DNA from: Sedimentisphaerales bacterium | Lineage (GTDB): Bacteria > Planctomycetota > Phycisphaerae > Sedimentisphaerales > SM23-30 | DNA length: 64,000 nucleotides | Assembly (NCBI GenBank): GCA_963663805.2 | Contig: CAXXMR010000027.1 | Coordinates: forward strand, 19,971-83,970 | Reading direction: 5' to 3' | In this document: positions 31,330 through 59,784 of the stretch, piece after piece | Numbering within the stretch: position 1 is the stretch's first letter | Layout: each line of letters begins with the position of its first letter | The notes under the pieces: generated by a model | The model's input: the letters and a program-made list of their open reading frames with translations, nothing else | The model's database searches: none | What the model was told of the DNA's origin: nothing | Position numbers and translations under genes: made by a program

Positions 31330-33354
31330 CTACGGGCAGAATGTCGAGGGTTCCAAATTACAAATCAGCCAGTTCTCCGCCATTAGTTTCAGGTCGATAA
31401 TGTCAACGCCACAATTGTTGTCGATATCGCCGGGGTAATTGTGGTCACAACCAGTCTCGAAGCTCCAGATCGGTCCAGTATAAACATTGTTCATAAGCAC
31501 AATATCGACGCGCCAATAATAAACGGTAAGCTCGTCAAGTGCAATTTCTAATGAATTGCTGTCTTGAAGAATGCTGACCGGTGTTTCCGGCAGGGCAGGT
31601 GTGGTTCCTATGTATATGTTATACTGATATTGCCCGGCGGGGTAGGCATTCCAGCTAAGTTCGGCATTTGTGGGGACGATTTCGTCGTTATGGGCAGGTG
31701 AATGACTTGTAAAATATAACAGATTGCTATTTGAGGCAAGGTCGCCGCGTCCGCCGTTTATGTCGGTGGCCGATGTGACATCTTCCATGCTGGTATAACT
31801 ATTGGTTGCAAGCGAGTAGATGCCGAAGGTGTCGTTGCCGTCGAAGGTTCTGAAAACGCATATTCGGTCGTCATTCTGATTTGAAAAAGCACAGCCGACC
31901 AGTCCGTTACTGGTATCACCGGTCGGCGTGGCAATATAAGTCAACTGGCCGGTCGAGGTGTCCAGTGACCAGATTTTGTTCGAGTTGCCGATAAGGTAAG
32001 CGTTGTTTTGAGAATCAAAGGTCAGGTCGATGATGTTGTTGGCCTGGGAATAGTAGTTAGTGCCGCTTAGATTATAAGTTGCGATAATCGAACCGTTGGA
32101 ATCGTTTATTTTTAGAAGTTGACCGGCCTGATTGTCAACCAGCCAGAGATTGTCCTGTTTGTCAAAGGCGGCTGCGGCTGCGAAGTAACTTTGTTCTGTT
32201 CCCAACGGCACAACTTCCACTCCGTCGGGACCGGCCAGGGTGGTGTTGTCTATCAGAACCATTTGGCTGGCAACAATACCGCTGTTGTCAGTTAAAGCGA
32301 AGGCAAGGGCCCTTCCCTGTGAGTTGATCGCCAGGGCGTCCAGGCAAACATATTCTGACTCCAAAGTTACCATACCGTGACTGGTGATATGGTTGTTGAT
32401 CAGGTTGATTTCAAAAAAAGCCGTAGGGGCAGTCGAGTACAAGGGCGCGTCATTAGTTGCGGCGGTTTGTATTCCGTATACCATGTCATACTGAATAAGT
32501 GTATCGCCGCGAAACACTGCCATATCACCCCGGCCGCCTTCATTGCCGGTTACTTCCCGTACGGTGCCATAATATGTATAAGAACCTATAGTCTGGCCCG
32601 CTACCGAAAAGGAATAAATCGTGTCGTCACCGCCCCAGGTGCGAAAAGCGTATATTTCATCATCGTCGCTGGGATTAACGGCAGCGCCGCACAAGCCGCT
32701 GGGCAGGGCTGGGCCGGTAATAGCCGTCATTTGGCCGTTTGTCACATCGAGTGTCCAGACCAGGTTGCTGTTACCAACCACATAAGCGATATTCTGACTG
32801 TCGAAGCTGAGGTCCAGCACACTGTTGACCGCACTAGCGTTATATCCACCGCCTGTCAGCGTCACGGACGAGATAATTTCACCGTTGAGGTCGTTAATCT
32901 GATGAAGGAGACCGGAAATATTATCGATAACCCATAAAATGTTGCTGTTGTCGTAAGCCGCTGCGGTAGCGAAATAGTCCTGCTGGTCGCCCAGGGAACA
33001 GGCGGTAATGTCGGTTTGAGACGACGATTCGGTATCAATTAAAATCAAGGTACTCTGGGCAGTGTCATTGGCGGGATCGGAAATAATAAACGCAACCATT
33101 TTGCCGAACGAATTAATCGCCAAGCCATCGGCTCTGATATAAACACCATCGACCTTTATGTTGCCATAACCAACAAGCTCCTGTGTGGCGGGGTTGATTT
33201 CAAAGAGCGAAGTCGGAGCGTCGCAATAAACAGGAGCGTTGGCGTTATTAGTTTTGGATTGAATGCAAAATATGCTTCCTGCCTGAGTCTGGGCAATTAA
33301 AATGATGTGCATACATAATATATAAGTCCAGATAAATCGCTTATACATTGCCAT
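31330..33354 (-). CDS. secreted protein with an internally duplicated beta-propeller-like domain, an FN3-like module and a dockerin-like C-terminal tail
   Basis: Two homologous halves (APVYCDAPTSLFEINPATQ… and APLYSTAPTAFFEINLINN…). The YYWRVD module and the tail GDIDNNCGVDIIDLKLMAENWLICN are present. Confidence 0.55.
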   Translation of the reverse strand: MAMYKRFIWTYILCMHIILIAQTQAGSIFCIQSKTNNANAPVYCDAPTSLFEINPATQELVGYGNIKVDGVYIRADGLAINSFGKMVAFIISDPANDTAQSTLILIDTESSSQTDITACSLGDQQDYFATAAAYDNSNILWVIDNISGLLHQINDLNGEIISSVTLTGGGYNASAVNSVLDLSFDSQNIAYVVGNSNLVWTLDVTNGQMTAITGPALPSGLCGAAVNPSDDDEIYAFRTWGGDDTIYSFSVAGQTIGSYTYYGTVREVTGNEGGRGDMAVFRGDTLIQYDMVYGIQTAATNDAPLYSTAPTAFFEINLINNHITSHGMVTLESEYVCLDALAINSQGRALAFALTDNSGIVASQMVLIDNTTLAGPDGVEVVPLGTEQSYFAAAAAFDKQDNLWLVDNQAGQLLKINDSNGSIIATYNLSGTNYYSQANNIIDLTFDSQNNAYLIGNSNKIWSLDTSTGQLTYIATPTGDTSNGLVGCAFSNQNDDRICVFRTFDGNDTFGIYSLATNSYTSMEDVTSATDINGGRGDLASNSNLLYFTSHSPAHNDEIVPTNAELSWNAYPAGQYQYNIYIGTTPALPETPVSILQDSNSLEIALDELTVYYWRVDIVLMNNVYTGPIWSFETGCDHNYPGDIDNNCGVDIIDLKLMAENWLICNLEPSTFCP

Positions 33355-33383
33355 AAGCCTTTCTGTTGCGTTTTAGAGGCATT

Positions 33384-34856
33384 TTATTTTTCCCAGTCCA
33401 TGAGCAAAAGAGCGAAATCATTCAGGTCAACAATGCAGTCATCATTCAGGTCTCCTTGCGGGTGTGATTGGCAGATTGGCTCACCGGAAACGAAACTCCA
33501 GACATCCCCGGCATTCAACAAAGTACCGCTGTCGTCGCGGGTATCGACTCGCCAGTAGTACTCTGTGTTTATATCCAATATTCCCAGTCCGGCATAAGAA
33601 AGTTCGGTAACATTGTCCTGGAAAATCAGACTTGCCGAGTTAGTCCCAAAATACACATCATAAGAAACTGCTTCTCCAAAACATTGCCAGCTCAATTCGG
33701 TTTCAAGCGGCACTTCTGCTTGCTCGTCATAAGGTTGGGGATTATAAGGCTGATTCGGTTGGCCGAAATTGCCGTTTACTATGGCAAAGTAAATATTGGG
33801 CGAACCTCCTTCATGGCCGGAATAATAACTAATGTACAAAGTATTACCGTCCAGATAGAGTCCGGCATAACTGTTGTCACCGCCGCTGGGCAGTTCCAGA
33901 AGGTCTTCCCAAAGACCGTCTTTGGTGATTTCGAATAGTCCGGTCATTTTACTGCCGGTCGAAGTACTCTGATATTGACGGCCCGCGGCGAGCAGGCGAC
34001 CGTTGGGCAAGATAATGAAATTTGGTCCGCCGATTTCGCGGTGAAGTGAATTTTCATCGAGCAGAGCGTTCCAGCTCCAGGTCGTATAACCGCCGGCCAG
34101 ATCGGACCAGCCGATATACGCTTGATTCGCATATGATCGTACGAGGCAAATCATCTCGTCATTATTGGCAAATCTCAAAGTCATCTCGGAGCTTCTTGCC
34201 GGCAGGGGCATTTTGACGACGGCGTTGAACTGAATGCCGTCCGTCGAGTTGAAAAGCCAGTGGTCCTGATTGGGATGGGCGGAAATCGAGCGATACGAGG
34301 CAGTGTAAGCCATGCTGTTATTCCAGGTCAGTCGCCAGGGCCATTCCGATTCGTATTGCTGATAAACACCGTCCGGGCCTGCAAATGTTTCTATCATGGG
34401 GCCAAACTCGCTATTAACCGAATCCCAGAATGATATCCAGGTCTTGCGTCTTTCCAGATATGTCCCTTCATAGTCGGCCCCGGTAAACCAGACCATCAAC
34501 TGGCCATTGTCGTCCATGGCGAGTTTTGAGTCCCGCAGGTCAAAGTCGTCCATCCGAAAATCTGCGACTCTGGTCCAGGCGATTCCGTCATTAGATTTGA
34601 TTACCGCGATTCGACCATCACGTCCACCTACATGTGCGTTACTCTCGCGAAAGGTTACAAAGAAACTGTCGCCAACGAAAGCCAGGTCCGTAAAAGCACA
34701 ATAGCTGTCAATTACGCCGGGCTCACGTTGGCCCTGCGTCCATATTTTGCGTACCGCCTCAAGCTGCAAATTGAGGTCGGAGGCAAAGGAGATGGAACTG
34801 AAAAGAAAGAGAAGTCCGGTGATATTTCTAATAAATCTGCTGTGTTTCATTGCCAA
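33384..34856 (-). CDS. secreted BNR/Asp-box sialidase-fold protein with an FN3-like module and a dockerin-like tail
   Basis: Asp-boxes KSNDGIAW and NSTDGIQF. FRESNAH and DLRDSKL blocks are present. The C-terminal YYWRVD module and the tail GDLNDDCIVDLNDFALLLMDW are present. Confidence 0.6.
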   Translation of the reverse strand: MAMKHSRFIRNITGLLFLFSSISFASDLNLQLEAVRKIWTQGQREPGVIDSYCAFTDLAFVGDSFFVTFRESNAHVGGRDGRIAVIKSNDGIAWTRVADFRMDDFDLRDSKLAMDDNGQLMVWFTGADYEGTYLERRKTWISFWDSVNSEFGPMIETFAGPDGVYQQYESEWPWRLTWNNSMAYTASYRSISAHPNQDHWLFNSTDGIQFNAVVKMPLPARSSEMTLRFANNDEMICLVRSYANQAYIGWSDLAGGYTTWSWNALLDENSLHREIGGPNFIILPNGRLLAAGRQYQSTSTGSKMTGLFEITKDGLWEDLLELPSGGDNSYAGLYLDGNTLYISYYSGHEGGSPNIYFAIVNGNFGQPNQPYNPQPYDEQAEVPLETELSWQCFGEAVSYDVYFGTNSASLIFQDNVTELSYAGLGILDINTEYYWRVDTRDDSGTLLNAGDVWSFVSGEPICQSHPQGDLNDDCIVDLNDFALLLMDWEK

Positions 34857-34867
34857 TCCTTTTGCTT

Positions 34868-35977
34868 TTAATTGGCCGCTGAGGAGTTATTGAAGTTGCC
34901 ATTGATGACCGCGAAATAAATGTGAGGTCCTTTTTGGTGCTTGGAATAATAGCTCATATACAATTTATTTCCGTCGATATGCAGGCCGGGATAACCATTA
35001 TCGCCGCCGCTGGGCAGTTCGATGGTATCGGTCCACAAACCATCCCGGGTAATCTCAAAAATTCCGGTCATGGGTCTGCCGCTGGAAGTTTTTTCATATT
35101 GACGACCAGAAGCGATCATTCTGCCGTTATCAAGAATCAGAAAGTTTGGCCCGCCAATACGCCGATGTGTACCGTCCTTGTCTTTTAGAGGTTTCCAGGT
35201 CCAGTTGGTATAATTTTCCGCACGGGTTGCCCAGCCGATATAGGCGAGGTCTTTGTCACGGCTGCGGCCAAAGCATACAATATTGTCATTTTCAGAAAAA
35301 CGTAACGCCATTTCACACATCAAAATCGGTGCTTCCAGTTTGACTACCGGTTTATACTTTATCCCGTCAGCGGACGAGAACAGCCAGTTGTCCCTGTTGT
35401 TACTTGATGACACCCATCGATACGAAGCCGTGAAAGCTTTTCCATTATGCCAGGTCAGAGCCCAGGGCCATTCGGAATTGAACTCCTGATAATTACTGCC
35501 GGTATCGGGAATTGTTTCTGTGACAGGACCAAATGCCGACTTGCTGTCATCCCAGAATGCGATCCAGGTTTTTCTGCCCTGCAAATATTTGTCCTTGTAA
35601 TCAGCACCGGTGAACCACACTGCCATTTTTCCCTGAGCATCTATCGCGAATTTGGAGTCCCGCAAATCATAAATATCATTGCGAAAATCCGCTACTCTCT
35701 GCCAGTTTTCCCGGTCCTTGGAGCGAATTACCGCGATCCTGCCGTTTCTGCCGTAAACGTGCCTGTCACTCTCGCGAAACGTAACATAATAATACCCGTT
35801 CAGGAAAACCAGGTCAGTGAAAGCACTGTAGCTGTCAACTACACCCGGTTGTCGTTCGCTTTGCGCCCATATTTGCCGGACAGATTCGATTTGAAGACTC
35901 AGTTCATCGCCTTGGACAGAGTTGAGGATGGAGATTGTTACTAAAAACGCGGTGATGTATAACTTCCTGTGGTTCAC
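34868..35977 (-). CDS. secreted BNR/Asp-box sialidase-fold protein (paralogue, no tail)
   Basis: It aligns along its length with 33384-34856 (FRESDRH, DLRDSKF, SSADGIKY). The start is taken at GTG (VNHRKLYITAFLV…), just before the signal peptide. Confidence 0.55.
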   Translation of the reverse strand: MNHRKLYITAFLVTISILNSVQGDELSLQIESVRQIWAQSERQPGVVDSYSAFTDLVFLNGYYYVTFRESDRHVYGRNGRIAVIRSKDRENWQRVADFRNDIYDLRDSKFAIDAQGKMAVWFTGADYKDKYLQGRKTWIAFWDDSKSAFGPVTETIPDTGSNYQEFNSEWPWALTWHNGKAFTASYRWVSSSNNRDNWLFSSADGIKYKPVVKLEAPILMCEMALRFSENDNIVCFGRSRDKDLAYIGWATRAENYTNWTWKPLKDKDGTHRRIGGPNFLILDNGRMIASGRQYEKTSSGRPMTGIFEITRDGLWTDTIELPSGGDNGYPGLHIDGNKLYMSYYSKHQKGPHIYFAVINGNFNNSSAAN

Positions 35978-36080
35978 TTCTGGGCCTTTCTGCGATCTTT
36001 GTTTAAGGTGAAAGCAGGTCTGAAGACAACATCTCATCCCCAAACCTGCTTTGTTGGGTTCTAAACGAAAATGGTTTTAC

Positions 36081-38264
36081 TTACTTGCAGGTTGGTACCA
36101 CGTTGCAAAGCATCCATTCTTCAGTAAACTTGGCAAAGTCATTGAGATTGACTATGCAGTCGCCATCGAAGTCAAAAGTCGGGTCCTCAGCACAAATCTC
36201 CACACCGGAAATCAGGTCGGTGTACAGGTGGGCAACCGCCACATTGTCCAGAGGATAGCTGAATATTCTGATTTCATCTATGTAACCGACCAGACTCGCC
36301 TCGCCGGTAATTCTTCCGCCAAAGACCAGGGGAACTTCCGGCAGGGCTACAACCGCACCAGTGTTGACTCTTTCGGTTATATATTCACCATCAGCGAACA
36401 GTTTCATTGTGCCGACCCCGTCGTAGGTGATAGTGAGCAGATGCCAGGCATCATCCGCAAACACGCTGGTAGCGTTAATGGAACCGCCCAGGTTCGGAAT
36501 TCCGCCCCCGGCATTGCCGTTGGCATAGATGTGCATGTAGAAGCCGCCGTTATAGCCCGGTTCGTTATTTCTCATGGGGTTGACGGTTTCGGTCTGAGCG
36601 GCATCAAGTTTGATCCAGCAGCTAGCGGTCATGCCCAAAGGATAGAAGTCTATCCATTCGGCACCGGGAATTTCAACAATCAGCCCATCGCCGGTAAACT
36701 CAAAGGCTTTGCCCGATACCCCGCCAGCAACATATCTTGAGCTTGGGTCCGGCGTAGGATTGTTTTCGTTCGGGTCAATGAACGAGCCATGATGGATGCC
36801 AAGTTGGTCATTGAGGTTGTCTTCAAACTTCCAGTGGGCCATCAGACGTTTAGTCCACAACTGGGCGATATTTGACAAAACCAAACCCGCACCATTGGAG
36901 GCTTCGCAATAGTAATATCCCTCGTCAGTCTGCTGAACGCCGGAAATCAGCAATGTTGCGTCAGTGCCTACCTGGGTGTCATCGCCCGGAGTGTTATTAG
37001 CGGCATCGAGCGAGCGATACCATTTGTAACTTTCGATATTCAGGCCGACAATAGAAAATTCCGCCGGGTCACCAATCGCTGAAATCGTGGATTGAGGGTC
37101 TGCTGAAATATAGGGCACCTGCGGTATCGTGGTGAAATTCCACACACTGCCCGTTTTTGTTGAACCACCAACTATCGCGTCAACACGCCAATAATAAGTG
37201 GTGTCATTGATAAGGTCTGCGGGGAATTCGTAGCTCAGGCCGGTGATGCCGCTTACTACTGTTGTACCCACCGCGCCGAAGTCGTTATCGTCGGCACGGT
37301 AGTTAAGTGTATAACTGCTGGGGGTGCCCAAATCGGGGGCTTCCCAGCTTAAGTCCGTGTCAATGGCGATCAGAATAGAACCATTACCCGGCGTGGGGTT
37401 TTTTGCCAGCTCGGTATAGCCCAGAGAGGCCAGGTCGCCGCGACCGCCTTCGTTGTTGGTAATCGTGCGAATTGAACCTAAATTTACTTCCGTTCCGATT
37501 ACGTCACCGGCAACCGAGAATTTTTTGACTGTGTCGTCGCCACCAAAAGTGCGGAATGCGTACATCATGGTATCATCATCCGGGTCGAGGGCACAGCCGC
37601 ACAAACCACTGGAAAGACTCGCACCGGTAAGTCTGGTCATTACTCCGGTGTTGACATTAGCTTTCCAAACATAATTTGTATTGCCGACAATATAGCAGAT
37701 ATTTGTACTGCTGAATGCCAGGTCGAGAACCGCGTTGGTCTGGGGGGCATAACCGCCGCCGCTCAGAGTGACAGTTGTTATGATTGACCCGTCGTTGTCG
37801 TTTATCTGGTACAATTTGCCGGAAATATTATCTATAGCCCACAGTTGACCGGAGGTGCTATAGGCTGCCGCGCAGGCGAAATAATTCTGCTCAGCGCCCT
37901 TGGGGCTCGCTGCTACCTCTGTCCCTCCCAGACTGCTCATGTCAAACTCAATCAGTTGGCTTGTCGCGGTGCTGTCAACAGGGTCGCTGATGACAAAACC
38001 CACAAGTTTGCCCGGCTGACAAGCCAGCCCCTCAACACGCACGTCCAGCCCCTGCACCAAAACATTGCCGTGGCTGGTAACAGTATCGGTTGCAGTGTCA
38101 ATTTCAAAAAGCGTGGTAGGCGGGTCACAGTAAACCGGGATATTGCCATTATTGGTGGCTATTTGCGTACCGTAAATAGTACCCGCGTAAACGTGATTCG
38201 CTCCGGACGAAAAAATCAAACACATCCCGCAAAGCAGTAATGACAGAATTTTTTTCATACTCAT
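36081..38264 (-). CDS. secreted multidomain protein: propeller-like domain, FN3-like, Ig-like, LamG/concanavalin-like lectin domain, dockerin-like tail
   Basis: The N-terminal domain is homologous to both halves of 31330-33354. YYWRVD is present. The Ig-like block is YKWYRS…EGYYYCEASN. The LamG block is AHWKFEDNLNDQLG…WHLLTITYDG…GYIDEIRIFSYPL. The tail is DFDGDCIVNLNDFAKFTEEWMLCN. Confidence 0.6.
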   Translation of the reverse strand: MSMKKILSLLLCGMCLIFSSGANHVYAGTIYGTQIATNNGNIPVYCDPPTTLFEIDTATDTVTSHGNVLVQGLDVRVEGLACQPGKLVGFVISDPVDSTATSQLIEFDMSSLGGTEVAASPKGAEQNYFACAAAYSTSGQLWAIDNISGKLYQINDNDGSIITTVTLSGGGYAPQTNAVLDLAFSSTNICYIVGNTNYVWKANVNTGVMTRLTGASLSSGLCGCALDPDDDTMMYAFRTFGGDDTVKKFSVAGDVIGTEVNLGSIRTITNNEGGRGDLASLGYTELAKNPTPGNGSILIAIDTDLSWEAPDLGTPSSYTLNYRADDNDFGAVGTTVVSGITGLSYEFPADLINDTTYYWRVDAIVGGSTKTGSVWNFTTIPQVPYISADPQSTISAIGDPAEFSIVGLNIESYKWYRSLDAANNTPGDDTQVGTDATLLISGVQQTDEGYYYCEASNGAGLVLSNIAQLWTKRLMAHWKFEDNLNDQLGIHHGSFIDPNENNPTPDPSSRYVAGGVSGKAFEFTGDGLIVEIPGAEWIDFYPLGMTASCWIKLDAAQTETVNPMRNNEPGYNGGFYMHIYANGNAGGGIPNLGGSINATSVFADDAWHLLTITYDGVGTMKLFADGEYITERVNTGAVVALPEVPLVFGGRITGEASLVGYIDEIRIFSYPLDNVAVAHLYTDLISGVEICAEDPTFDFDGDCIVNLNDFAKFTEEWMLCNVVPTCK

Positions 38265-38337
38265 CGTAATGTCCTCCAGTAAAAGTAGTAAAATATTATT
38301 CAATACCTGATTCTTGCTAAACGATCGCTAGGTTTAG

Positions 38338-39300
38338 TTATGCATTGACTTTTGTCGGCCGGGACTGCGGAATTTCAACCTTGAGATAAGGCCTAGAGCC
38401 CAGCCATCCAAAAAAACCTAGTTTGGCCATATCTTTTTCCAGTGCCAGTATTTGGGTGTTCGTCAAAGCCACCAGCGGCAAGCGAGTCGGGCCACAATCC
38501 ATGCCTACCAGTTTCATCGCCGCCTTGAATGCAGCCAGACCACCGTGATCATACAATAACCGACATATGCTCACCGCTTTCAATTGCCATTGGCGAGCGG
38601 TTTCCAGGTCACCCTGCTGAAAAGAGTTTATTACACGCTGATAAATCGGGGCCGCGAAATTGTACGAAGTCCCCACCGCTGAAGTGCCGCCCACGCTCAT
38701 AGATGCCAATAGCATTTCGTCCGAACCGAACAAAATATTGTAACGACCATCCTGAAAGTTTACGCACCTCTGAAAGTCGTGAAGATTATGAGCACTGAAT
38801 TTCATGCCAGCCAGATTGGGGAACTGCTTTTCGCCCAGACGCAGCATTTCCACCGTATCAAAATCTATTCGCGTTGTACGCGGGATGTGATAGTAGTAAA
38901 ACGGTAATTCCGGGGCAGCATCACAAATATGTTTGAGCGTGGCAACCAGAGCTTCAATCGAAACGCACCCGTAATAAATCGGTGGTACCGCTGCCATGGC
39001 ATCAGCACCTGCCTTAAACGCGTGTTTGGCTAAGACTTTCGCTTCTTCAATAGATTCATGACCTACCGATACGATTACCGGTACTCGCTTGTTCGCGGCC
39101 TTGATATATTCTTCCGCAACTGCCATACGTTCCTGACAGCTCAGCAACGCTCCTTCACCCGTTCCACCTCCAACATAAAACCCCTTTATATCCTGCTGTA
39201 TCAGGGACTCTGCTATATCGGAGATTCGACCCAGGTCTACCCTGCCGTCTTCCCGAAAGGGTGTAAAAACTGCGGCGATGAGTCCACTACATTTAACCAT
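38338..39300 (-). CDS. nanA: N-acetylneuraminate lyase-like aldolase (DapA/NanA family)
   Basis: GFYVGGGTGEGALLS compares with E. coli NanA YVGGSTGEAF. The Schiff-base lysine context is GMKFS. GTSYNFAAPIY compares with NanA GSTYNIMG. The locus context is sialidase-like proteins plus an SSS transporter. Confidence 0.65.
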   Translation of the reverse strand: MVKCSGLIAAVFTPFREDGRVDLGRISDIAESLIQQDIKGFYVGGGTGEGALLSCQERMAVAEEYIKAANKRVPVIVSVGHESIEEAKVLAKHAFKAGADAMAAVPPIYYGCVSIEALVATLKHICDAAPELPFYYYHIPRTTRIDFDTVEMLRLGEKQFPNLAGMKFSAHNLHDFQRCVNFQDGRYNILFGSDEMLLASMSVGGTSAVGTSYNFAAPIYQRVINSFQQGDLETARQWQLKAVSICRLLYDHGGLAAFKAAMKLVGMDCGPTRLPLVALTNTQILALEKDMAKLGFFGWLGSRPYLKVEIPQSRPTKVNA

Positions 39301-39434
39301 TATTGTTCTCCAAAATGTCGGCCTATACTACACATGCGACATGAAATCACATAAAAATCAAAACTCAAGATACTTTTGAGGGATTGCTTAACTCGCGTTC
39401 CCTTTAAAACTTCGCCAATTGAAAACATACGAAC

Positions 39435-40208
39435 TTACTTCAGGGTGAATCGATAATCTGAATTTTTCAGATGGTCGGGAGCTTCCTTCAGCTCCAGTTC
39501 AGCCACATGCCCGTCAACAAAAAGGATGTTAGTTTCGTAACTCTTCTCGTCGTGCATCTGGGTATAGGCAAGATACTGAGTGCCGGTCGTAAAATATTCC
39601 GAATAAGCGATAGTACGATCACCTAGCATCACCATATTGCCTGCCTGTCTGATACTCGCGGACTTTTGATTGTAGAGGGTTTCGACTATGCGATGACCAG
39701 CCCCGCCCCATGCTTCACCCTTGGAACTGGTGGCAAGTCCCTCAATTGGATCCAGATAAACTGCGTTGTAAACGTAACTCGAACCATAAATGTCATAGAA
39801 AGGACGGTTGTCATATTCCGACGGAACACCGGAGCCTTTGCGATAACCTTTATCCATTGGGCAGTAACAAACCTTGGTATCAATATAGGGAGTTAATTTT
39901 CTTTCATTGCCCGGAATTGGCTGATAATCACCGTTATGGTCACCAACAATATTAACACGATTGTTATGATAAAGAGTCGCCAGGGTCGGCTTGTCTTTTT
40001 CCATATACATAGGCAGCATGTCGTCATTGTCTTCCGTATATACATTAATACCCAGCCCGATTTGATGAATCTGGGTTCCGCAAACAACTTTCTTGGCTGA
40101 CTCACGAGCTTGCCCCAATGCCGGCAAAAGAATCGAAACCAGCAAAGCTATGATGGCAACTACAACCAATAGTTCGACGAGGGTAAAAGCTTTGGGGCGA
40201 TGATTCAT
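39435..40208 (-). CDS. type II secretion pseudopilin-like protein (prepilin N-terminal methylation site, DUF1559/H-X9-DG type)
   Basis: [26 protein letters not shown] is a prepilin cleavage/methylation motif. C-terminal FVDGHV is present. Confidence 0.75.
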
Positions 40209-40294
40209 GGCATTTTTCCTTTTTCTCAGGCTATAGACTTTTGTCATCCGATTTCACTGGCTTTATTATCGCAAATTAGCACCTGTGGTTAAAT

Positions 40295-40333
40295 CTCATT
40301 TTGCGTTCAATATTTCTCATTCTACGAACATTA
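40295..40333 (+). promoter_or_regulatory. conserved roughly 40-bp motif, copy 1 (upstream of the XylR/AraC-type regulator)
   Basis: CTCATTTTGCGTTCAATATTTCTCATTCTACGAACATTA is nearly repeated at 42706-42744 and partly, in reverse complement, at 54081-54122. Confidence 0.5.
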
Positions 40334-40464
40334 CTTTTTCTTGCAAAAAAAGGAGATCTGTATCAAAAAATGAGAGAAAATGGCATTTTAAGCCGCTAAG
40401 ACCGAATTATCGGACAAGGAATTATGCTTGCATTTCTTTGTGTCAGTTGTTTAAAATATTTTTT

Positions 40465-41688: not shown

Positions 41689-41725
41689 CGACCATCCCGC
41701 ATATTTGATAGTACTATAAACCCAA

Positions 41726-42544
41726 TCAACTATTCTTGCGTATTCTGATAGCCATGCCCGCTCCAGCCGTCAACAATAGTACGGTCAAGGGCTCCGGAAT
41801 TGCTGTGGTGGAGGTATAGATACCGGTAATCTGCTGTTCGCTGAGCGTATTGTTGAAAATCGCGAAATCATCAAGGGCACCGGTGAAATATCTCATGCCG
41901 CTGGTATGGTAACGCCGGCCCAGCGATACGCGAGCACCCGGCTGCCACGAAGTTGATGCCGTGGTACTGGTAGCAACACCGTCAACGTAGATTATGGGTA
42001 TCGCGTCTCCGGTCTCGGAATCTTCTGCTACCGCGACAGCTATGTGATGCCAGCCGTCGTCCAGATTAGCGACGCTGGATTCCACCTGACTCAAAACATC
42101 ATTTTCGCCCCGGCAATAAACCCGAACATTGCTGCTGCCAAAACCAATGCTGAACTCAACGTCATTATAGGCGTAGGCAAACAATACACTTGCCTGAGCC
42201 CAATTGCCGGTTTTGACCCACGTCGAAACCGTAAAGCTGTCACTTGTTCCGCCCGGAAGATTTTCAGGAGTCGCACTCATCCTGGAGGTATAAACCTCAG
42301 CCACATTGCCGCCGCGAAAATCCAGGGCAGTACCGTATTTACCTGCGACGGAATAGTCATCAAAACTAAAAGCCGGAGTCCCGTTAAACATCGTGGCATC
42401 ATAAGCCGGGTCAGCCACGCCCGCGGTGTCGTGAGCTACCGTCCCGGTACTCTCGTCAAAATCATAGTGCAATACCAACGCGGCATTTGATACGCTGGCC
42501 CATAAAGCTACAAGCAAAATCAACATTTTTTTAGTCAATAACAT
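41726..42544 (-). CDS. secreted LamG-domain protein with PEP-CTERM anchor
   Basis: LHYDFDESTGTVAHDTAG, FTVSTWVK, DDGWHHIAVAV, IYVDG and GALDDFAIFNN are present. C-terminal IPEPLTVLLLTAGAGMAIRIRK is present. Confidence 0.7.
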   Translation of the reverse strand: MLLTKKMLILLVALWASVSNAALVLHYDFDESTGTVAHDTAGVADPAYDATMFNGTPAFSFDDYSVAGKYGTALDFRGGNVAEVYTSRMSATPENLPGGTSDSFTVSTWVKTGNWAQASVLFAYAYNDVEFSIGFGSSNVRVYCRGENDVLSQVESSVANLDDGWHHIAVAVAEDSETGDAIPIIYVDGVATSTTASTSWQPGARVSLGRRYHTSGMRYFTGALDDFAIFNNTLSEQQITGIYTSTTAIPEPLTVLLLTAGAGMAIRIRKNS

Positions 42545-51699: not shown

Positions 51700-51716
51700 T
51701 TTCGGATATTTAAATC

Positions 51717-54046: not shown

Positions 54047-54080
54047 AAGCACCTTTCTGATACTGAAAAACTGATTGTAA

Positions 54081-54122
54081 GCTATAATTGAGAATAAATC
54101 AAGTTTTCTTGCGCAAAATGCC
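54081..54122 (-). promoter_or_regulatory. partial third copy of the regulator-associated motif
   Basis: The minus strand reads CATTTTGCGCAAGAAAACTTGATTTATTCTCAATTATAGC. It shares CATTTTGCG and the TTCTCA-TT block with copies 1 and 2. Confidence 0.35.
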
Positions 54123-54223
54123 AAAGTCTTAGCACAAAGAGGGATGATATATTTTGTCGATACATGTTAGGATATAATCTGTTGAGTACCAACGTTATAG
54201 GGATGTAAAGCAGAGGTGACAAA

Positions 54224-55429
54224 ATGGTAAAGATTCTTAGAGCCTTACTACCTTTTTTATTCAGTATGAGTTGCCTGGCCGCAGATGAGATTGTGGTCTG
54301 TGAGTATGCTCCGATAAAATTCAAACCTGGCATGTTTGATGTCAGTCAGGGGGATACTCTGGGATTGAAGGAGGCCGATGGTAGTGAGACGATAACGGTT
54401 TTTCGACCGGAGCGGGAAACCGATATGCGTTTCAATAATCATCCGCAGTTGATAGTTTTCAAAGAAAAACTTTACGCAACCTGGGTCGGCCATCCGGTTC
54501 ACGAGGTAAGTGATAAGGCGTATGTTTTTTATAGTTGCAGTGTTGATGGACACAAGTGGACTGAGCCGGTTCGAGTTGGACCGGAATTACGGGCCAGTGG
54601 CGGTTGGTTAAGTGATGGTAATCATCTTTCATGTTTGCTGATAAAGGCTGACAAGGAACTTAAAGGTGAACATAAGGTTGAGTCGCCAGATACGGAATAT
54701 TGCCTGAGTCGGGATGGTTTGATCTGGTCAGAGGCCCAGGTTTTGATAGATAACGCGATGCCCAGCGAAAGCGCCCGCCGAACTTCTACGGGCCGATATA
54801 TAATGACTTGTCATGGCTTGGGTAAGGGTGACTACTCAGATGTACGGGTGACTCGAGTGATGTACACAGATGACCCCGCAGGTCTTACCGGTTGGCAGGA
54901 AGGCCAATTGCCGCGTTTGCTTCCTGTGAATATCTCCGATAGTAAAAAAGTCGCTCGGGCGGTTGAATCGAGTTGGTATGAAAGGCGTGATGGTTCACTG
55001 GTAATGTTGTTTCGCAGTCTGGATTTTAATGCCAAAACACGTCCGTGGCGGGTTCTGGCGGCAGAAAGTTTTGATAACGGTACGACCTGGAGCAAGCCGG
55101 TCCTGACAGATATGGTTGACTCTGATTCGATGCAGTGTGCAGGTTCTTTGCCGGACGGAACAGTATATATGATAAATAATCCAGTTGAAGGACGCCGGCG
55201 GGTTCCGCTGGCAATTACGGTCAGTGATGACGGAAAATACTTTGACCGCTCGTATCTGGTGCGGGGGACACCACAGGAAAGACGCTACGAGGGTATAAGC
55301 AAAACCCTGGGATACAGCTATCCGGGGCGAGCCGTCTGGAAAGATTATATCTGGATATCATACGCGACCAATAAAGAAGATATCGAAATTACCCGCATTC
55401 CTCTGAAGTCTTTGAAGAAAGTGCAGTAG
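54224..55429 (+). CDS. secreted BNR/Asp-box sialidase-fold protein (second family)
   Basis: Signal peptide present. Asp-boxes SVDGHKW, SRDGLIW, SFDNGTTW and SDDGKYF. The conserved DSDSMQCAGSLPDG block is present. Confidence 0.6.
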   Translation: MVKILRALLPFLFSMSCLAADEIVVCEYAPIKFKPGMFDVSQGDTLGLKEADGSETITVFRPERETDMRFNNHPQLIVFKEKLYATWVGHPVHEVSDKAYVFYSCSVDGHKWTEPVRVGPELRASGGWLSDGNHLSCLLIKADKELKGEHKVESPDTEYCLSRDGLIWSEAQVLIDNAMPSESARRTSTGRYIMTCHGLGKGDYSDVRVTRVMYTDDPAGLTGWQEGQLPRLLPVNISDSKKVARAVESSWYERRDGSLVMLFRSLDFNAKTRPWRVLAAESFDNGTTWSKPVLTDMVDSDSMQCAGSLPDGTVYMINNPVEGRRRVPLAITVSDDGKYFDRSYLVRGTPQERRYEGISKTLGYSYPGRAVWKDYIWISYATNKEDIEITRIPLKSLKKVQ

Positions 55430-55432
55430 CAG

Positions 55433-57961
55433 ATGAAGTATACTTTAATGGTCGGTATCACGTTTTTGTTATTTTTACCCGGTAGGGCCCACGGCTGGCA
55501 TGATTGGGATAATGGTGGGCCGGGCCATTACTGGAATACGCCGGGCAACTGGCAGGATGATGTGCTGCCTGGTAGCGATGATAATCCCCGTATTGATATG
55601 GACGGCTCGATGGGAGCTATAATCAACTCAAGTATGACTAGCCTGCCGGTTTATGCGACAGTTGCTATAGGTTGTGAAGGCTCCGGCAGGGTATCGATTA
55701 GCGGCGGGATTTTGCATTCCGCGAATTTAATTATGGGCGGAGATATTGGTTCATCGGCGATATGTGAATTGTTCGCGGGCGTGGTCGCGGTAGATAATGA
55801 TTTTACTCTGGCTGACAATGGTACCGCATTTTTTGATATGACCGGCGGGAGTTTGTCCGGCAATAATGTTTACATTGGCAGTGGTGTTGGCTCGGAAGGG
55901 ACATTCAAAGTCAATTATGATGCCGTGGTTACTTTTAGCAATTCTGCCGTTTTAGGTGTCTCTGGCAGCGGCATTTTGGAAATTAGCAATGGCCAGATGG
56001 TCATTGGGCAGAGTCTAATCCTGGCCCAGAATTCCGGTTCCGTGGGCAGGGTTGAACTCCGAGGCGGAACTTTACGGGCGGCAAATCTGATATGGGGCGA
56101 CGGTGAGGGCACAATCGATATAAGCGGAGGGACGTTGATTCTGGATGGTCAAATAAGCGAACTGCCCGATACAGTTATCGCTTACGGGGGCAATGAACAA
56201 TGGTATTTGGCCTTGGATTACGATTCAGTTGAGGATGTGACGCGAATCAGTGTTGCAATGGTACCGCCGATTTTCGTCTGGGAGGATATTTTTGACTATA
56301 ACCAGGGCGATTCTCTGGGGCTTATGCCGGCATATCAAACGGAAACTGTCACAGTTTTTCAGCCGGTTGCAGATGAAGATATGAAGTTTAACAATCATCC
56401 TCAACTGGCGGTTTTTCAAGGGCGGCTTTATATTACCTGGACCGGGCATCCTCAAGATGAGCTATCTGATGAATCGTGGGTATTCTACAGTATCAGTTCG
56501 GATGGTATTAGTTGGTCTGAACCACAGATATTAGGCCCGGATATTCGAGCCAGTAGCGGTTGGCATAGCGACAATGTGCAATTAGTCAATTATATGGCCA
56601 GGCTACTCAATACTCAGGCTTATGTATCTCTGGATGGAAAAAACTGGACTGATTACGGTTTCATATTGAATAATGCCGCACCCAGTGAAAGCGACCGTGC
56701 CCTGCCCGAAGGACGTCTGATTATGCCCTGTCACGGCTACGGCAGTGGTTTATTTGAGGATGTGAAAGTCACCCGTATTATGTATACGGACACTCCGAAC
56801 GGTCTTAGCGGCTGGCAGGAAGCGATTTTACCCCAATTGCCGGAAATAAATATTTCCGATAACAAGAAAGTCGCCCGTGCGGTTGAGCCGAGTTGGTTTA
56901 TACGTCCGAACGGTGAGTTGGTGATGGTTTTTCGCGACCTCAATTTTAACGCGGCCTTGCGTAACTGGAAACTGCTGGCCTCTGTAAGTTCAGACCGTGG
57001 CCAAAACTGGACGCTCCCGGTCTTAACAAATATGCCCGATTCCGACTCGATGCAGTGCGCGGGCAATCTTCCCGACGGCTGGTCTTATCTGGTGAATAAT
57101 CCTATCGCTACCCGCAGGCGGGTACCTTTGGCAATTACTATAAGCAGGGACGGCAAAACGTTTGATAGTTCTTATCTGCTGCGCGGTACACCGCCGGCAA
57201 TCGTGTTTGAAGGGGGTGATAAAACTCTGGGCTATTCGTATCCCGGAAGCGTTATCTGGGGTGATTACCTTTATATTGCCTATGCGACTAACAAGGAAAA
57301 TATTGATGTGACGCGCGTGCCCTGGCGGAGTTTGGTTTCACAATATACGATAATAGAAAACTTTGATGGTTATCCAACTCGCGCCGAACTGACGGAATAC
57401 TGGCAGGGACAGGGAAATGCTGATTTGCAAATAAGCAAATTTCCTGAGCCGGGCCATGCTTTTAATTCTTTGAACCTTGGATATGAAAATAATCTGGCCC
57501 CCTATTACAGTTCGGCGTGTAAGATTTTTGCTGAGCCTCAGAATTTGAGTTCAGATGGAATTCACGCGCTGGATATTTCGTTGAAAGGTGACGCGGCGAA
57601 CCCGCCGGCAGTAATTTATGTTGAGCTTAGTGACGGGGATAATGTTGCCCAGTTGGTTTTACGCAATGAATATGGGGCGATAGATTATGACGCGGTACGT
57701 GCTGACGATTGGTTTACCTGGCATATTGACTTACAAAATTTTTCGAGGGTAAATCTGGAACATGTTGTGACTCTGGCGGTCGGTTGTGGTTATGCCGGTT
57801 ATAGCGGTGGGGGAAATTTGTATATTGATGATGTCAGGCTTTATCCGGGCAGATGCTTTGGCGGTTACCCGGACAATGACCTTAACGGTGATTGTATTGT
57901 TGATATGGAAGATTTTATGCTTTTTGTGGCAAATTGGGCAAAAACCGGGTTTTTCCCCTAA
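55433..57961 (+). CDS. secreted multidomain protein: beta-helix-like N-domain, BNR sialidase-fold domain (paralogue of 54224-55429), CBM-like domain, dockerin-like tail
   Basis: The central region aligns with the previous gene (FNNHPQLAVFQGRLYITWTGHP, SSDGISW, DSDSMQCAGNLPDG). The tail is DLNGDCIVDMEDFMLFVANW. Confidence 0.6.
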   Translation: MKYTLMVGITFLLFLPGRAHGWHDWDNGGPGHYWNTPGNWQDDVLPGSDDNPRIDMDGSMGAIINSSMTSLPVYATVAIGCEGSGRVSISGGILHSANLIMGGDIGSSAICELFAGVVAVDNDFTLADNGTAFFDMTGGSLSGNNVYIGSGVGSEGTFKVNYDAVVTFSNSAVLGVSGSGILEISNGQMVIGQSLILAQNSGSVGRVELRGGTLRAANLIWGDGEGTIDISGGTLILDGQISELPDTVIAYGGNEQWYLALDYDSVEDVTRISVAMVPPIFVWEDIFDYNQGDSLGLMPAYQTETVTVFQPVADEDMKFNNHPQLAVFQGRLYITWTGHPQDELSDESWVFYSISSDGISWSEPQILGPDIRASSGWHSDNVQLVNYMARLLNTQAYVSLDGKNWTDYGFILNNAAPSESDRALPEGRLIMPCHGYGSGLFEDVKVTRIMYTDTPNGLSGWQEAILPQLPEINISDNKKVARAVEPSWFIRPNGELVMVFRDLNFNAALRNWKLLASVSSDRGQNWTLPVLTNMPDSDSMQCAGNLPDGWSYLVNNPIATRRRVPLAITISRDGKTFDSSYLLRGTPPAIVFEGGDKTLGYSYPGSVIWGDYLYIAYATNKENIDVTRVPWRSLVSQYTIIENFDGYPTRAELTEYWQGQGNADLQISKFPEPGHAFNSLNLGYENNLAPYYSSACKIFAEPQNLSSDGIHALDISLKGDAANPPAVIYVELSDGDNVAQLVLRNEYGAIDYDAVRADDWFTWHIDLQNFSRVNLEHVVTLAVGCGYAGYSGGGNLYIDDVRLYPGRCFGGYPDNDLNGDCIVDMEDFMLFVANWAKTGFFP

Positions 57962-58101
57962 AAAAGTACTGTCGGCTTGCATGAAAACACAAACTATTTG
58001 CGCATATTGGCATAGTGTCTCGGTCGATAAATGGTAATAATAAGCGTAGTTGAGTCTGGTGTTGGTAAAGAATCTGGAGCAAAAAAGATCAGGAGGTTTT
58101 A

Positions 58102-59784
58102 ATGATGAAAAACAAAATCGCGTATGTATCACTTTTAGTTATGTTTGTAGCCTTGGTTTCGGTATCGCCAGCAGCAGTAACGGCACCGACCGGAGGCGGA
58201 AAACTTGCTTTGGGATTTGACGGAACTGATGTGGTTCTGGGCAGCGGGACAAAAGTTACGACCTGGACCGATCAGGTTTCAGATTATGACGCCGCGGCGG
58301 TGTTGTTCGCCCAGCAGCCCACGCTGGTGGATTTAGATACCGGCAACGGTGTACACCCGGTGGTGGATTTTGATGGGTCAATGAATTACATGGAAACTGC
58401 GGCTTTCAGCTCGGTTTTCAATCAAGCCAACGTGATTTTTATGGTGGCAGCCTGGGATGTCCTGCCGGTCAGTCTTTATATGTTCGACAGTATCGACGGC
58501 GCTAACCGTAACGCATTATACAGTCGTTCGGACAGTTCTTTCGGCATGTTCGCAGGCTCACAGATTATCAACGGTAATGTTCAGGCGGTGACCAATACTT
58601 TCCAGGTTTATACAGCAGTCTTCAATGGGGCCAACAGTCTGTTGCGTATCGACGGTGCCTCTGTTCTGGGCGGTAATACGGGAACCCTGGGGCTTTCTGG
58701 TCTGACAATCGGTGCTGACCGTAACGGTAATCAGGTATTCAATGGCAAAATCGCGGAGGTTCTGGTTTATGACGGAGGCTTGAATACCGAACAGATTTTA
58801 GCTATTGAAACATATCTTAGAGAAAAATATATCGTCACTCCCGACCCCGATATCGCCACCAACCCCAATCCGGCTAATTCCGAATCTGGTATCCCTCTGG
58901 ATGTTGTATTGAGCTGGACTGCTAGTCCTTCCGCTCAGCCGGTTGACGGTCAGGATGTATATTTTGGCGAAGTCAAACAGGATGTTATTGATGCTGACCG
59001 TGCCAATCCTTTAGGGGTGTATCAGGGTGCCCAGGACGGCAATACATTTGACCCGACCGGCCCGTTGGAACTGGGTAAGACTTATTACTGGCGGGTGGAC
59101 CAGGTAAATGGCACGACAATCTGGGCCGGCGAAGTCTGGGGCTTTACGGTTGCTTCTTATGTTCTGGTCGATAATTTTGAGGATTATGCTGATACCACAG
59201 CTCTATTGGGTGAATGGTCGGAAAACGGCCAGGCGTGGCTGGCTTTGGCAACCGATTCGGCGCTAGTGCTAGGCGAAAAATCTATGGAACTGCACTACGG
59301 CAATTCGAGCAGTCCCTATTATTCCGCGGCGACTCGAAATTTCGACCCGGCTCAGGACTGGACTATCTCCGAAGTTGAGGCGATGGATGTCTGGTTCAAA
59401 GGGCAAAACGCTAATTCCGCCGCTCCCGTTTATGTGGAAATTTCTGACGGAGTAAATACGGCCCGTCAATATCTGCTGGGGGATGATGAAATGACAGACC
59501 CAAATGCCACAAGAGATGAAGCCTGGTACCACTGGCGAATCGATCTTGATAGGTTTACAAATGTGAGTTTGACAGCGGTTACCGAATTAACTTTCGGAGT
59601 TGGTGACGGAATTAACCCCGCTCAGGCCACTACGGGTGACATTTATATCGAAGATTTCCGGCTTTATCCTACCCGTTGTCTGATGGGTAATCCAGACTAT
59701 GATTTCAATGGCGACTGCACTGTCGGTCTGGAAGATTTCGCTATCTTTGCGACGGGATGGCTCGAAACCGGTTTGTGGCCTTAA
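58102..59784 (+). CDS. secreted LamG-like, FN3-like and CBM-like protein with a dockerin-like tail
   Basis: GKIAEVLVYDGGLNTEQILAIETYLREKY is a LamG_3-type end. The YYWRVD module is present. The C-terminal domain is homologous to that of 55433-57961 (IYIEDFRLYP). The tail is DFNGDCTVGLEDFAIFATGW. Confidence 0.6.
   Translation: MMKNKIAYVSLLVMFVALVSVSPAAVTAPTGGGKLALGFDGTDVVLGSGTKVTTWTDQVSDYDAAAVLFAQQPTLVDLDTGNGVHPVVDFDGSMNYMETAAFSSVFNQANVIFMVAAWDVLPVSLYMFDSIDGANRNALYSRSDSSFGMFAGSQIINGNVQAVTNTFQVYTAVFNGANSLLRIDGASVLGGNTGTLGLSGLTIGADRNGNQVFNGKIAEVLVYDGGLNTEQILAIETYLREKYIVTPDPDIATNPNPANSESGIPLDVVLSWTASPSAQPVDGQDVYFGEVKQDVIDADRANPLGVYQGAQDGNTFDPTGPLELGKTYYWRVDQVNGTTIWAGEVWGFTVASYVLVDNFEDYADTTALLGEWSENGQAWLALATDSALVLGEKSMELHYGNSSSPYYSAATRNFDPAQDWTISEVEAMDVWFKGQNANSAAPVYVEISDGVNTARQYLLGDDEMTDPNATRDEAWYHWRIDLDRFTNVSLTAVTELTFGVGDGINPAQATTGDIYIEDFRLYPTRCLMGNPDYDFNGDCTVGLEDFAIFATGWLETGLWP

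Follow-up and report, generated by a model that had tools for sequence, protein, structure and literature searches.

Six exported proteins encoded in the window (the whole 64,000-nucleotide stretch of DNA analysed here) end in a single dockerin-like repeat, and the same tail was found genome-wide on exported proteins whose genes are linked to orphan pseudopilin-like genes, while a cohesin is missing from this genome of an uncultured planctomycete. The linkage of tail genes to orphan pseudopilin-like genes is a new result, and neither it nor the tail was described in the literature searched (subscription papers on Sedimentisphaerales genomes excepted). The tail may have arisen from the dockerin repeat as an autonomous module specific to this lineage and may serve as a docking handle, a reading to which we give about an even chance.

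The first-pass annotation had counted seven secreted proteins with this tail but listed coordinates for six, and these six ORFs were confirmed (Table 1). All six tails are single-repeat and stop 0-4 residues before the stop codon, with the consensus end C..D-x-N-x-D-C-x-V-D-L-x-D-F-A-x-x-A-x-x-W-L. An HMM built from them matched 140 of the 17,444 ORFs of the genome at E<1e-3. In 98 of these 140 proteins, no more than 25 residues separate the tail from the C-terminus, and 82 of the 98 C-terminal tails are single-repeat. Among the 132 proteins with a significant stretch, 96 carry it within the last 20 residues, where uniform placement in a protein of ~550 aa would put only ~4%. Chance was thus excluded by the genome-wide matches and their C-terminal position, and the tail first noticed in the window proved to be a real and recurrent module. 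A signal-peptide-like N-terminus was present in 89% of tailed proteins, compared with 29% of background ORFs. Among 60 sampled tailed proteins, the domain in front of the tail comes from at least 25 unrelated Pfam families, and distant homologues of the C-terminal CBM-like module end at '..DDIRLYRP' without it; the possibility that the tail is a piece of a longer known domain was rejected on these grounds. Orthologues of the protein at 58102..59784 (47-50% identity) retain the tail. About five copies are N-terminal or internal, for example right behind the signal peptide, and a binding module is therefore favoured over an obligate C-terminal export signal.

Table 1 Features of the window related to the tail, the PEP-CTERM paralogues and the pseudopilin-like genes
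Feature	Coordinates	Strand	Remarks
Degenerate dockerin-like loops (two), residues 818-879	5067..5252	-	inside the IS-interrupted RCC1/beta-helix protein 4695-7703
Small PEP-CTERM-like protein	9431..10078	-	seven-member family; no LamG match
Exported protein, 674 aa	31330..33354	-	single-repeat tail ~31333-31464, both Cys pairs: GCDHNYPGDIDNNCGVDIIDLKLMAENWLICNLEPSTFCP
Exported protein, 490 aa	33384..34856	-	single-repeat tail ~33387-33476: ICQSHPQGDLNDDCIVDLNDFALLLMDWEK
Exported Ig + LamG protein	36081..38303 (likely start 38264)	-	tail ~36084-36206, both Cys pairs; AlphaFold models
Pseudopilin-like gene, prepilin N-methyl signal	39435..40247	-	heads a minus-strand run with tailed genes 36081, 33384 and 31330
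Short LamG protein with PEP-CTERM	41726..42544	-	closest tailed paralogue on another contig, 40% identity
Exported repeat protein, 469 aa	48458..49867	+	tail 49766-49864; loop Gly, not Cys
Exported BNR (sialidase-like) protein, 842 aa	55433..57961	+	tail 57851-57958, 'RC...WxxxGxxP' subtype
Exported protein, 560 aa: LamG, extra module, CBM-like domain	58102..59784	+	tail 59674-59781
Short LamG paralogue of 58102..59784	59791..60642 (likely start 59839)	+	PEP-CTERM ~60568-60639
Pseudopilin-like gene	60713..61495	+	closes plus-strand run 54224-60642; arrangement kept in relative L006

The tail had been taken for half of a classical two-repeat dockerin, and a profile of 50 tails indeed matched solved type I dockerins (E 3e-8), aligning to each of their two repeats. 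Existing dockerin models recover it poorly: Pfam Dockerin_1 gave weak matches in 27 of the 50 tails (best E 7e-4), PF00404 matched 4 of 60 tailed proteins at E<=1e-4, and none of the six window proteins matched PF00404 at E<=0.01. Like type I dockerin (PF00404; PDB 5NRM/5NRK, 2Y3N), the tail has a predicted 12-residue calcium loop, D-x-N-x-D-x-x-V/I-D/N-x-x-D, followed by a helix, and is mostly C-terminal on secreted carbohydrate-active or carbohydrate-binding proteins. Type I dockerin has two tandem repeats of ~22 residues each, with Gly at loop position 6; the tail consists of just one, in which this position is Cys, putatively paired with an upstream Cys. Its helix closes with an invariant Trp-Leu, a Cys hairpin is optional and a long linker is lacking. 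It falls below the Pfam threshold and occurs in an order in which 39 of 41 sampled genomes have no cohesin. The NCBIfam family NF041540 ('GC-type dockerin domain-anchored protein') is likewise a Cys-containing dockerin-like C-terminal module of Gram-negative bacteria and is curated as an anchor. However, only one window protein matched it, with 17.9 bits (cut-off 29), and only 1 of 50 tails did so, and the tail is therefore a different subfamily. The full two-repeat dockerin that had been assigned to the IS-interrupted RCC1 protein was not borne out: this protein, which matches 'choice-of-anchor Q' (NF041518), contains two degenerate loops which are not called by Pfam and are not C-terminal.

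Each tail corresponds to one dockerin repeat, a putative Ca-binding loop plus a helix, with Cys as the usual residue at loop position 6. The ligand positions are highly conserved (D1 in 80/80 tails, N/D3 in 68/80, D/N5 in 79/80 and D/N9 in 76/80; position 12 was set by the anchoring pattern and is uninformative in this respect), as are Trp W20 (79/80) and the hydrophobic helix face formed by F13, A14, A17, W20 and L21. An upstream Cys was found in all 64 tails with a loop Cys but in only 2 of the 16 without one, and the number of Cys after the Trp was zero in 43 tails, two in 34 and one in only 3. Judged from these residues, the tail would comprise one calcium-binding loop and, behind it, one amphipathic helix. 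A disulfide from the Cys at loop position 6 to a Cys 5-14 residues upstream would stiffen this structure, and a second disulfide would close the Cys-x8-Cys hairpin that is often present behind the invariant Trp-Leu. In some copies the calcium ligands are gone and the helix and W-L are retained, and calcium may therefore be dispensable. The AlphaFold model of the tail alone (70 sequences) had a pLDDT of 84.9 and contained the loop plus a helix at residues 24-37, and that of LamG plus tail (14 sequences) had a pLDDT of 65.7 with a low-confidence linker; no solved structure was matched by Foldseek with the 44-residue tail model, which is very small. A tripartite sortase-type signal was also looked for, and the tails stop 2-24 residues past the Trp without a hydrophobic span.

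In classical dockerins both repeats are required for folding, and a lone repeat might therefore bind nothing by itself. Single tails could pair in trans like EF-hand-type motifs; the tails of two co-encoded proteins would then complete a two-repeat, dockerin-like junction, giving hetero-oligomers that need no separate receptor. Two-repeat forms do exist in the same genome, with the Cys hairpin after W-L joining repeat 1 to repeat 2, and the single tail therefore resembles the opening half of such a unit. Without pairing, the conserved hydrophobic helix face would be exposed, and 26 tail genes have another tail gene within 500 bp, compared with 5.4 expected, two such runs being located in the window. 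Nevertheless, this clustering may be mere operon structure and many tailed genes are solitary, so trans pairing is considered quite unlikely.

The absence of a cohesin, which had been remarked for the window, extends to the whole genome, where PF00963 gave zero matches at E<=1. The tail was present in all 41 sampled genomes of the order, probably Sedimentisphaerales, and a Pfam cohesin in only 2 of them; in one relative, the cohesin-bearing scaffold protein itself ends with the same kind of module. In the phylum-wide survey, in which at most 35 candidates were scored per genome, 'order-specific' applies at E<=1e-6 and to the sample only. When 1.84 billion representative proteins were searched, 48,516 matched at E<=1e-3; this list is topped mostly by multi-repeat proteins and is thus not a count of single-repeat tails. 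Non-cellulosomal dockerin-type modules of planctomycetes are also the subject of the 'Planctosome' proposal for freshwater Phycisphaerae (PMC6461901), which was built on recognisable cohesin-dockerin pairs, whereas no cohesin was found here and the module has a single repeat. Sedimentisphaerales are among the planctomycetes richest in carbohydrate-active enzymes, and the survey reporting this (PMC11131199) does not mention a dockerin-type module.

We infer that the tail, placed without a long linker at the C-terminus of ~100 Sec-exported lectin-like or enzymatic proteins per genome of this Phycisphaerae order, would act as a non-covalent docking handle by which these proteins are held at the cell envelope, and that its receptor would be other than a Pfam-type cohesin. 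Since no receptor was found, the tail could alternatively have no partner at all and be merely a calcium- and disulfide-stabilised cap that guards the C-terminus of exported proteins. The short linker between the tail and the preceding domain, with the upstream Cys directly behind the last strand of that domain, would agree with a cap. However, across ~100 otherwise unrelated proteins there is hardly any variation in the Trp-Leu and the hydrophobic helix face, the helix is kept where calcium ligands are lost, the module also occurs at N-termini, and the scaffold of the relative mentioned above carries it as well. A cap is thus highly improbable.

The second C-terminal tag of the window is PEP-CTERM, the exosortase-associated signal (PF07589, TIGR02595; Haft et al. 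2006, PMC1569441), whose PEP motif, hydrophobic helix and basic end are common to three window proteins and ~87 proteins of the genome. The three window assignments made earlier were upheld, two by score (59791-60642 with 27.4 bits, Pfam cut-off 20.7; 41726-42544 with 16.7 bits, NCBIfam cut-off 16) and the third, 9431-10078, by the visible VPEP, hydrophobic stretch and RFRKH, its 13.6 bits being below the cut-off. Unlike PEP-CTERM, the tail has no membrane-spanning segment, and the two are alternative tags. No exosortase is encoded within the window, as had been noted, because both genome copies (PF09721, 185 and 184 bits) are located on another contig, C12; an exosortase was present in 41 of 41 relatives.

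The PEP-CTERM proteins of the window had been described as close LamG paralogues of tailed proteins. This holds for the adjacent pair 59791/58102 but not for 9431-10078, which has no LamG match, and 36081 and 41726 share just 21% identity. Moreover, the tag is not the main difference within the adjacent pair, as had been thought: the 51% identity covers only the first 247 residues, after which the tailed protein continues for ~310 more. Tail-bearing paralogues were found for 30 of the 87 PEP-CTERM proteins, 15 pairs being within 5 kb of each other, and the two versions differ in size and build, the PEP-CTERM ones being short with a single domain (median 258 aa) and the tailed ones long and multidomain (median 553 aa). 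Such pairs recur in a second genus, and those of genome G004 share 53% and 66% identity. At the syntenic locus L006, two long tailed copies take the place of the one long tailed and one short PEP-CTERM copy of the window, and tags may have been swapped among tandem duplicates. The NCBIfam 'choice-of-anchor' domains (e.g. NF041518) are similar in that one extracellular domain family has differing C-terminal anchors; here, however, the alternation is between adjacent tandem paralogues of many unrelated families and is tied to protein length. PEP-CTERM and exosortase would provide a second, covalent or membrane route for the shorter paralogues. The earlier proposal of two parallel routes for one toolkit is supported insofar as paralogues carry either tag, but the tags sit on short and long proteins respectively, often side by side on one strand with a pseudopilin-like gene, and one locus-level system therefore fits at least as well as two independent routes.

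The PEP-CTERM neighbours could also be hidden receptors, i.e. small exosortase-fixed beta-sandwich proteins binding the tail of the adjacent long protein, so that the two tags would be plug-and-socket halves. Consistent with this, 18 PEP-CTERM genes lie within 500 bp of tail genes (4.4 expected), 11 of 32 lie within 3 kb in G004 (4.1 expected), and exosortase is universal in the sampled genomes. Most of the adjacent PEP-CTERM proteins, however, do not belong to one receptor family but are paralogous to the N-terminal domain of the neighbouring protein itself (LamG, beta-helix repeats and others). None of the 87 PEP-CTERM proteins exceeded 2.6% probability in hhalign against three cohesins from relatives, a comparison of a single sequence with a three-sequence profile that has low sensitivity, and none matched a Pfam cohesin at E<=1. 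We therefore regard such receptors as very unlikely.

A close linkage was observed between tail genes and orphan pseudopilin-like genes. Both copies in the window exceeded the TIGR02532 cut-off of 16.3 bits (25.6 bits for 39435-40247 and 31.8 bits for 60713-61495), and the orthologue in L006 matches H-X9-DG. Genome-wide, a pilin-like gene was found within 3 kb of 57% of the tail genes but of only 14% of the 393 untagged exported proteins used for comparison (odds ratio 8.2, P 2e-17). Of the 69 pilin-like genes, 33 have a tail gene no more than 500 bp away, in the same orientation in all 33 cases. The result was replicated in G004, where the fetched regions showed a tail gene in 9 of 17 pilin-like loci and in 0 of 17 random control loci; when only listed coordinates were used, with 150 of 266 tail candidates scored, the count was 6 of 20 against 3.3 expected. 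With their prepilin cleavage/methylation signal, these neighbours resemble the DUF1559 / H-X9-DG pseudopilin-like proteins of PVC bacteria (TIGR02532, TIGR04294), for which the literature searched shows no linkage to a particular C-terminal tag. Their position beside tail genes makes them testable partner candidates, and the adjacent pseudopilin-like proteins would be the leading candidates for the receptor.

The same linkage could mean that the tail is recognised, as a handle for export or sorting rather than as an anchor, by a type II secretion-like machine, with the co-encoded orphan pseudopilin as a cargo- or locus-specific adaptor that would drive the tailed protein through the outer membrane. 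In favour of this, genes for a prepilin peptidase and six secretins are present in the genome, the close pairs are without exception co-oriented, the linkage was seen again in G004, and the strong C-terminal bias of the tail suits a sorting signal. To our knowledge, however, the type II secretion substrates known so far carry no linear tag. A few tail copies are N-terminal or internal, PEP-CTERM genes lie in the same neighbourhood so that the linkage may reflect locus organisation instead of direct recognition, and the pilin-like proteins are diverse (median 33% identity) whereas the tail face is nearly invariant. An export handle is thus considered unlikely.

A broader reading is that the tail, the orphan pseudopilin-like gene and the short PEP-CTERM paralogue would belong together in a single, as yet undescribed system for surface capture or export in Sedimentisphaerales, perhaps also in other PVC bacteria. 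Each glycan locus would have its own pilin-like adaptor or fibre subunit, the nearly invariant tail would be the common handle by which ~100 lectins and enzymes are loaded, and the exosortase-fixed paralogues would keep the same ligand specificity at the membrane. This proposal is tentative, and we regard it as unlikely; if true, it would give a role to the very large DUF1559-type pilin family and explain the cohesin-less dockerins. A tag that is carried by ~2% of all proteins, occurs in every sampled genome of the order and is missed by standard domain libraries is in any case a large annotation gap. Handles for work in cultured members of the order are provided by the missing cohesin, the regular pairing with PEP-CTERM paralogues and the close linkage to orphan pilin-like genes, and such work bears on what non-cellulosomal dockerins bind and on the role of the hundreds of pilin-like paralogues in PVC bacteria.

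Six ORFs that the first-pass annotation had singled out in the window share a C-terminal motif, here called the tail; that annotation counted seven tailed proteins but gave coordinates for only six, and its number was corrected. The tail consensus is C-x(5-13)-D-x-N-x-D-C-x-V-D-L-x-D-F-A-x-x-A-x-x-W-L, followed by C-x8-C or G-x-W-P, and the stop codon lies 0-4 residues past its end in the six ORFs. An HMM built from these six tails was searched against the 17,444 ORFs of the whole genome (4.75 Mb, 35 contigs, 88% complete), and 140 proteins were matched at E<1e-3 and 118 at E<1e-5. The tail stretch was located within 20 residues of the C-terminus in 96 of the 132 proteins with a significant stretch, and among 98 C-terminal tails (same distance limit) 82 were single-repeat and 16 double. 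By a crude test, a signal-peptide-like start was present in 89% of tailed proteins versus 29% of other long ORFs. The genome-wide HMM count suggested by the first-pass annotation thus places the tail beyond chance, as it is C-terminally enriched and mostly on exported proteins, and the feature is real. In 60 sampled tailed proteins the preceding families were LamG (15), Ig, Glug, beta-helix, PA14, glucoamylase-like, subtilase, FG-GAP, RCC1, CBM4_9 and others. Orthologues of 58102-59784 at 47-50% identity retain the tail, and distant homologues of its CBM-like module end at '..DDIRLYRP' with no tail. These many unrelated families and tail-less homologues rule out that the tail is the end of one longer domain.

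The standard domain libraries miss the tail. Pfam Dockerin_1 matched no window protein at E<=0.01, and the NCBIfam GC-type dockerin NF041540 gave one match below its threshold (17.9 bits versus a cut-off of 29). A precomputed dockerin domain was assigned to 0 of 108 homologues of 58102-59784, and dockerin was not mentioned in the source names; the homologues were named 'Sedimentisphaerales bacterium' or 'Planctomycetes bacterium'. Compared with PF00404, the tail departs in three of four membership tests (two repeats, threshold score and a cohesin in the genome). A profile of 50 tails matched solved type I dockerins at E 3e-8 to 7e-7 and EF-hand proteins more weakly. Since this profile aligns separately with each of the two repeats of the solved dockerins, the tail is, as judged from sequence profiles, one dockerin repeat; the module descends from a dockerin repeat and would work like one.

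Loop ligand positions are conserved among the tails, and Trp occupies position 20 in 79 of 80. Classical dockerins carry Gly at loop position 6. Cys is found at this position in 64 of 80 tails, all 64 of which have an upstream Cys (within 16 residues, most often 7), versus 2 of the 16 non-Cys tails. After the Trp, 43 tails have no Cys, 34 have two and 3 have one; the first mostly falls at W+3, with a typical spacing of 8. From this pairing two independent disulfides, each of them optional, are predicted; they fit an exported module, and we infer that they compensate for the absent second repeat. AlphaFold modelled the tail alone (70 sequences) with a pLDDT of 84.9 as a loop and then a helix at residues 24-37; this very small model found no match in Foldseek.

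In the two-repeat forms of the same genome, the Cys hairpin after W-L (the conserved Trp-Leu at the helix end) joins repeat 1 to repeat 2, and the single tail thus resembles the opening half of a two-repeat unit. One rival explanation is that tails pair with each other in trans. A few module copies are internal or directly behind the signal peptide (see table). In some copies the loop ligands are gone and the helix with W-L is kept (see table); the functional core may be the helix, not the calcium loop. Another rival is that the tail is a mere structural cap. The helix face (F13, A14, A17, W20, L21) hardly varies between tails, which speaks for a single shared binding site. As a separate observation, three public metagenome proteins (P0109, P0110 and P0117; 1,800-2,600 residues) contain 21-29 consecutive matches to the tail profile.

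Sampling of the same family and order covered 41 genomes; every one contained the tail, with between 7 and more than 150 matches per genome. A phylum sample of 201 genomes was scored at E<=1e-6 for up to 35 candidates in each genome; matches came solely from the window's genome and two relatives, all three from the window's order. The absence of cohesin, first remarked for the window, extends to its whole genome (Pfam, E<=1). Of the 41 genomes from the order, 2 have a Pfam cohesin (1 among the 22 of high quality), and there it adjoins classical dockerins of another type; the L003 pair is an ordinary cohesin-dockerin pair, differing in type from the tail. Because of these neighbours, and because the two-cohesin protein itself is W-L-ended, the relatives' cohesins are unlikely tail receptors. 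This scaffold carries a W-L-type double module at its end and may therefore be held by the same receptor as the tails. Its closed genome agrees with the account of Limihaloglobus sulfuriphilus in PMC11557425, and the order is accordingly probably Sedimentisphaerales. Non-cellulosomal dockerins have been discussed in planctomycetes where cohesins exist (PMC6461901).

About 87 proteins of the genome were matched by the PEP-CTERM HMM, with a median length of 258 aa versus 553 aa for tailed proteins; no protein in the genome carries both tags. When tags were removed before comparison, 30 of the 87 had a tail-bearing paralogue, and in 15 of these pairs the two genes are within 5 kb of each other. 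Nine of the 15 are immediate neighbours on one strand, with N-terminal 180-300 residues that are 25-60% identical. In 18 cases a PEP-CTERM gene has a tail gene within 500 bp, versus 4.4 expected (maximum 10 in 200 random samples). The members of dyad 58102/59791 are 51% identical across 247 residues; after that stretch PEP-CTERM closes the short member, and about 310 further residues lead to the tail in the long member. Locus L006 of a relative, syntenic to this dyad, has two long copies, both tailed, and lacks a PEP-CTERM copy, so between tandem duplicates both tag and length change. In G004, a closed genome of another genus, PEP-CTERM lies within 3 kb of a tail in 11 of 32 cases versus 4.1 expected (P about 0.001), and adjacent pairs are again paralogues (53% and 66% identity). 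The proposal of alternative tags on paralogues is thus supported genome-wide, but the toolkit is no plain duplicate: the PEP-CTERM members are short, single-domain versions. One domain with alternative anchors is an idea already curated in the NCBI 'choice-of-anchor' domains, of which choice-of-anchor Q was matched by one window protein.

No exosortase had been reported in the window; the genome-wide search found two genes on contig C12, and exosortase was present in all 41 relatives. On C12, eight tandem small genes (380162-386295) have a distinct 'VPAPGALLLGSLGMGLVGWLRKRR' PEP-CTERM flavour, and the second exosortase is about 15 kb away inside a 680-residue ORF (exosortase-containing ORF, C12:365056-365826); the arrangement suggests an exosortase devoted to a set of substrates of its own. 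A further rival makes the PEP-CTERM neighbours hidden sockets for the tails, but a sequence-level test of low sensitivity for cohesins among PEP-CTERM proteins was negative. Some PEP-CTERM neighbours are not paralogues of the tail genes beside them, among them C3:60679-61395, C18:81438-82094, C3:200533-201441 and C33:16587-17276 in this genome.

Two sugar-utilisation gene runs, one per strand, are found in the window (contig C27, positions 19971-83970), both with AraC-type regulators. The stretch 27794-39300 is a sialic-acid-type harvesting run including the NanA-like lyase; its BNR proteins are without Pfam-detectable catalytic families and its symporter is fused to HEAT repeats. Three exported proteins of this run carry the tail. 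Recent insertions are frequent in the window: among 7489-8847(-), 24523-25536(+) and 44044-45831(-) are two copies of an IS-type transposase with identical C-terminal sequence, and the beta-propeller gene 42837-43991 is cut by a third, different transposase (595 aa).

Gene runs of the window and tail- or cohesin-bearing loci (G000, the window's genome; G020 and G031, relatives; C, contig; L, locus in a relative; P, protein matching the tail profile)
Feature	Location	Strand	Content
Minus-strand run	27794-40247	-	pilin-like protein, DHDPS/NanA-type lyase, BNR-like proteins, sodium:solute symporter
Plus-strand run	54224-61495	+	two BNR proteins, LamG proteins, pilin-like protein
Two-cohesin protein (closed 3.9-Mb relative)	L004/L005, G031:C1:1001995-1006197		2069 residues; two Pfam cohesins, internal classical dockerin-like repeat, W-L-type double module at end
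Cohesin-dockerin pair	L003, G020:C250:1-2148		classical two-repeat dockerin protein immediately upstream of signal peptide + cohesin protein
Module not C-terminal	G000 C19:130278-131285 and C20:67625-67879		directly after signal peptide, before FGE-sulfatase-like domain
Tails without calcium-ligand residues	G000 C8:156840-161003; P0029, P0034		helix and W-L-x-x-x-(I/L)-W-P ending kept

Both window runs (39435-40247, 60713-61495) and L006 combine tails with a pilin-like gene. The genome has 69 ORFs with the prepilin cleavage/methylation motif, 33 of them at most 500 bp from a tail gene and always on its strand (18 upstream, 15 downstream). These 33 are not recent copies, because the pilin-like proteins are diverse (median identity 33% among the 69). 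A pilin-like gene lies within 3 kb of 57% of tail genes, 34% of PEP-CTERM genes and 14% of untagged exported proteins (n=393; tail versus untagged, odds ratio 8.2, P 2e-17). When pilin-like loci of G004 were taken with 4.5 kb on either side, a tail gene was present in 9 of 17, versus 0 of 17 random loci (one-sided hypergeometric P 4.6e-4); in eight of the nine it is directly adjacent and co-oriented. The genome also encodes a prepilin peptidase and six secretins. In a rival reading, the tail would be the export handle on which a type II-like machine guided by pilins acts; the non-C-terminal and ligand-less copies favour a helix binding surface over an obligate C-terminal export signal.

The literature, key subscription papers on these genomes apart, yielded no description of the Cys-stapled tail with its single repeat, of its abundance across the order in the absence of cohesin, of dyads of PEP-CTERM and tail, or of the link to pilin-like genes. 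We propose that the tail would be a disulfide-stapled calcium-loop-plus-helix docking handle. The adjacent pilin-like proteins are candidate receptors, best supported on gene linkage, and the common site could, but need not, be present in pilins as diverse as these. Taken as one joint reading, a handle on a non-cohesin receptor with PEP-CTERM as a separate route is about evenly poised between right and wrong: the tail would hold exported lectins and enzymes at the envelope, and exosortase would provide the route for their short paralogues.
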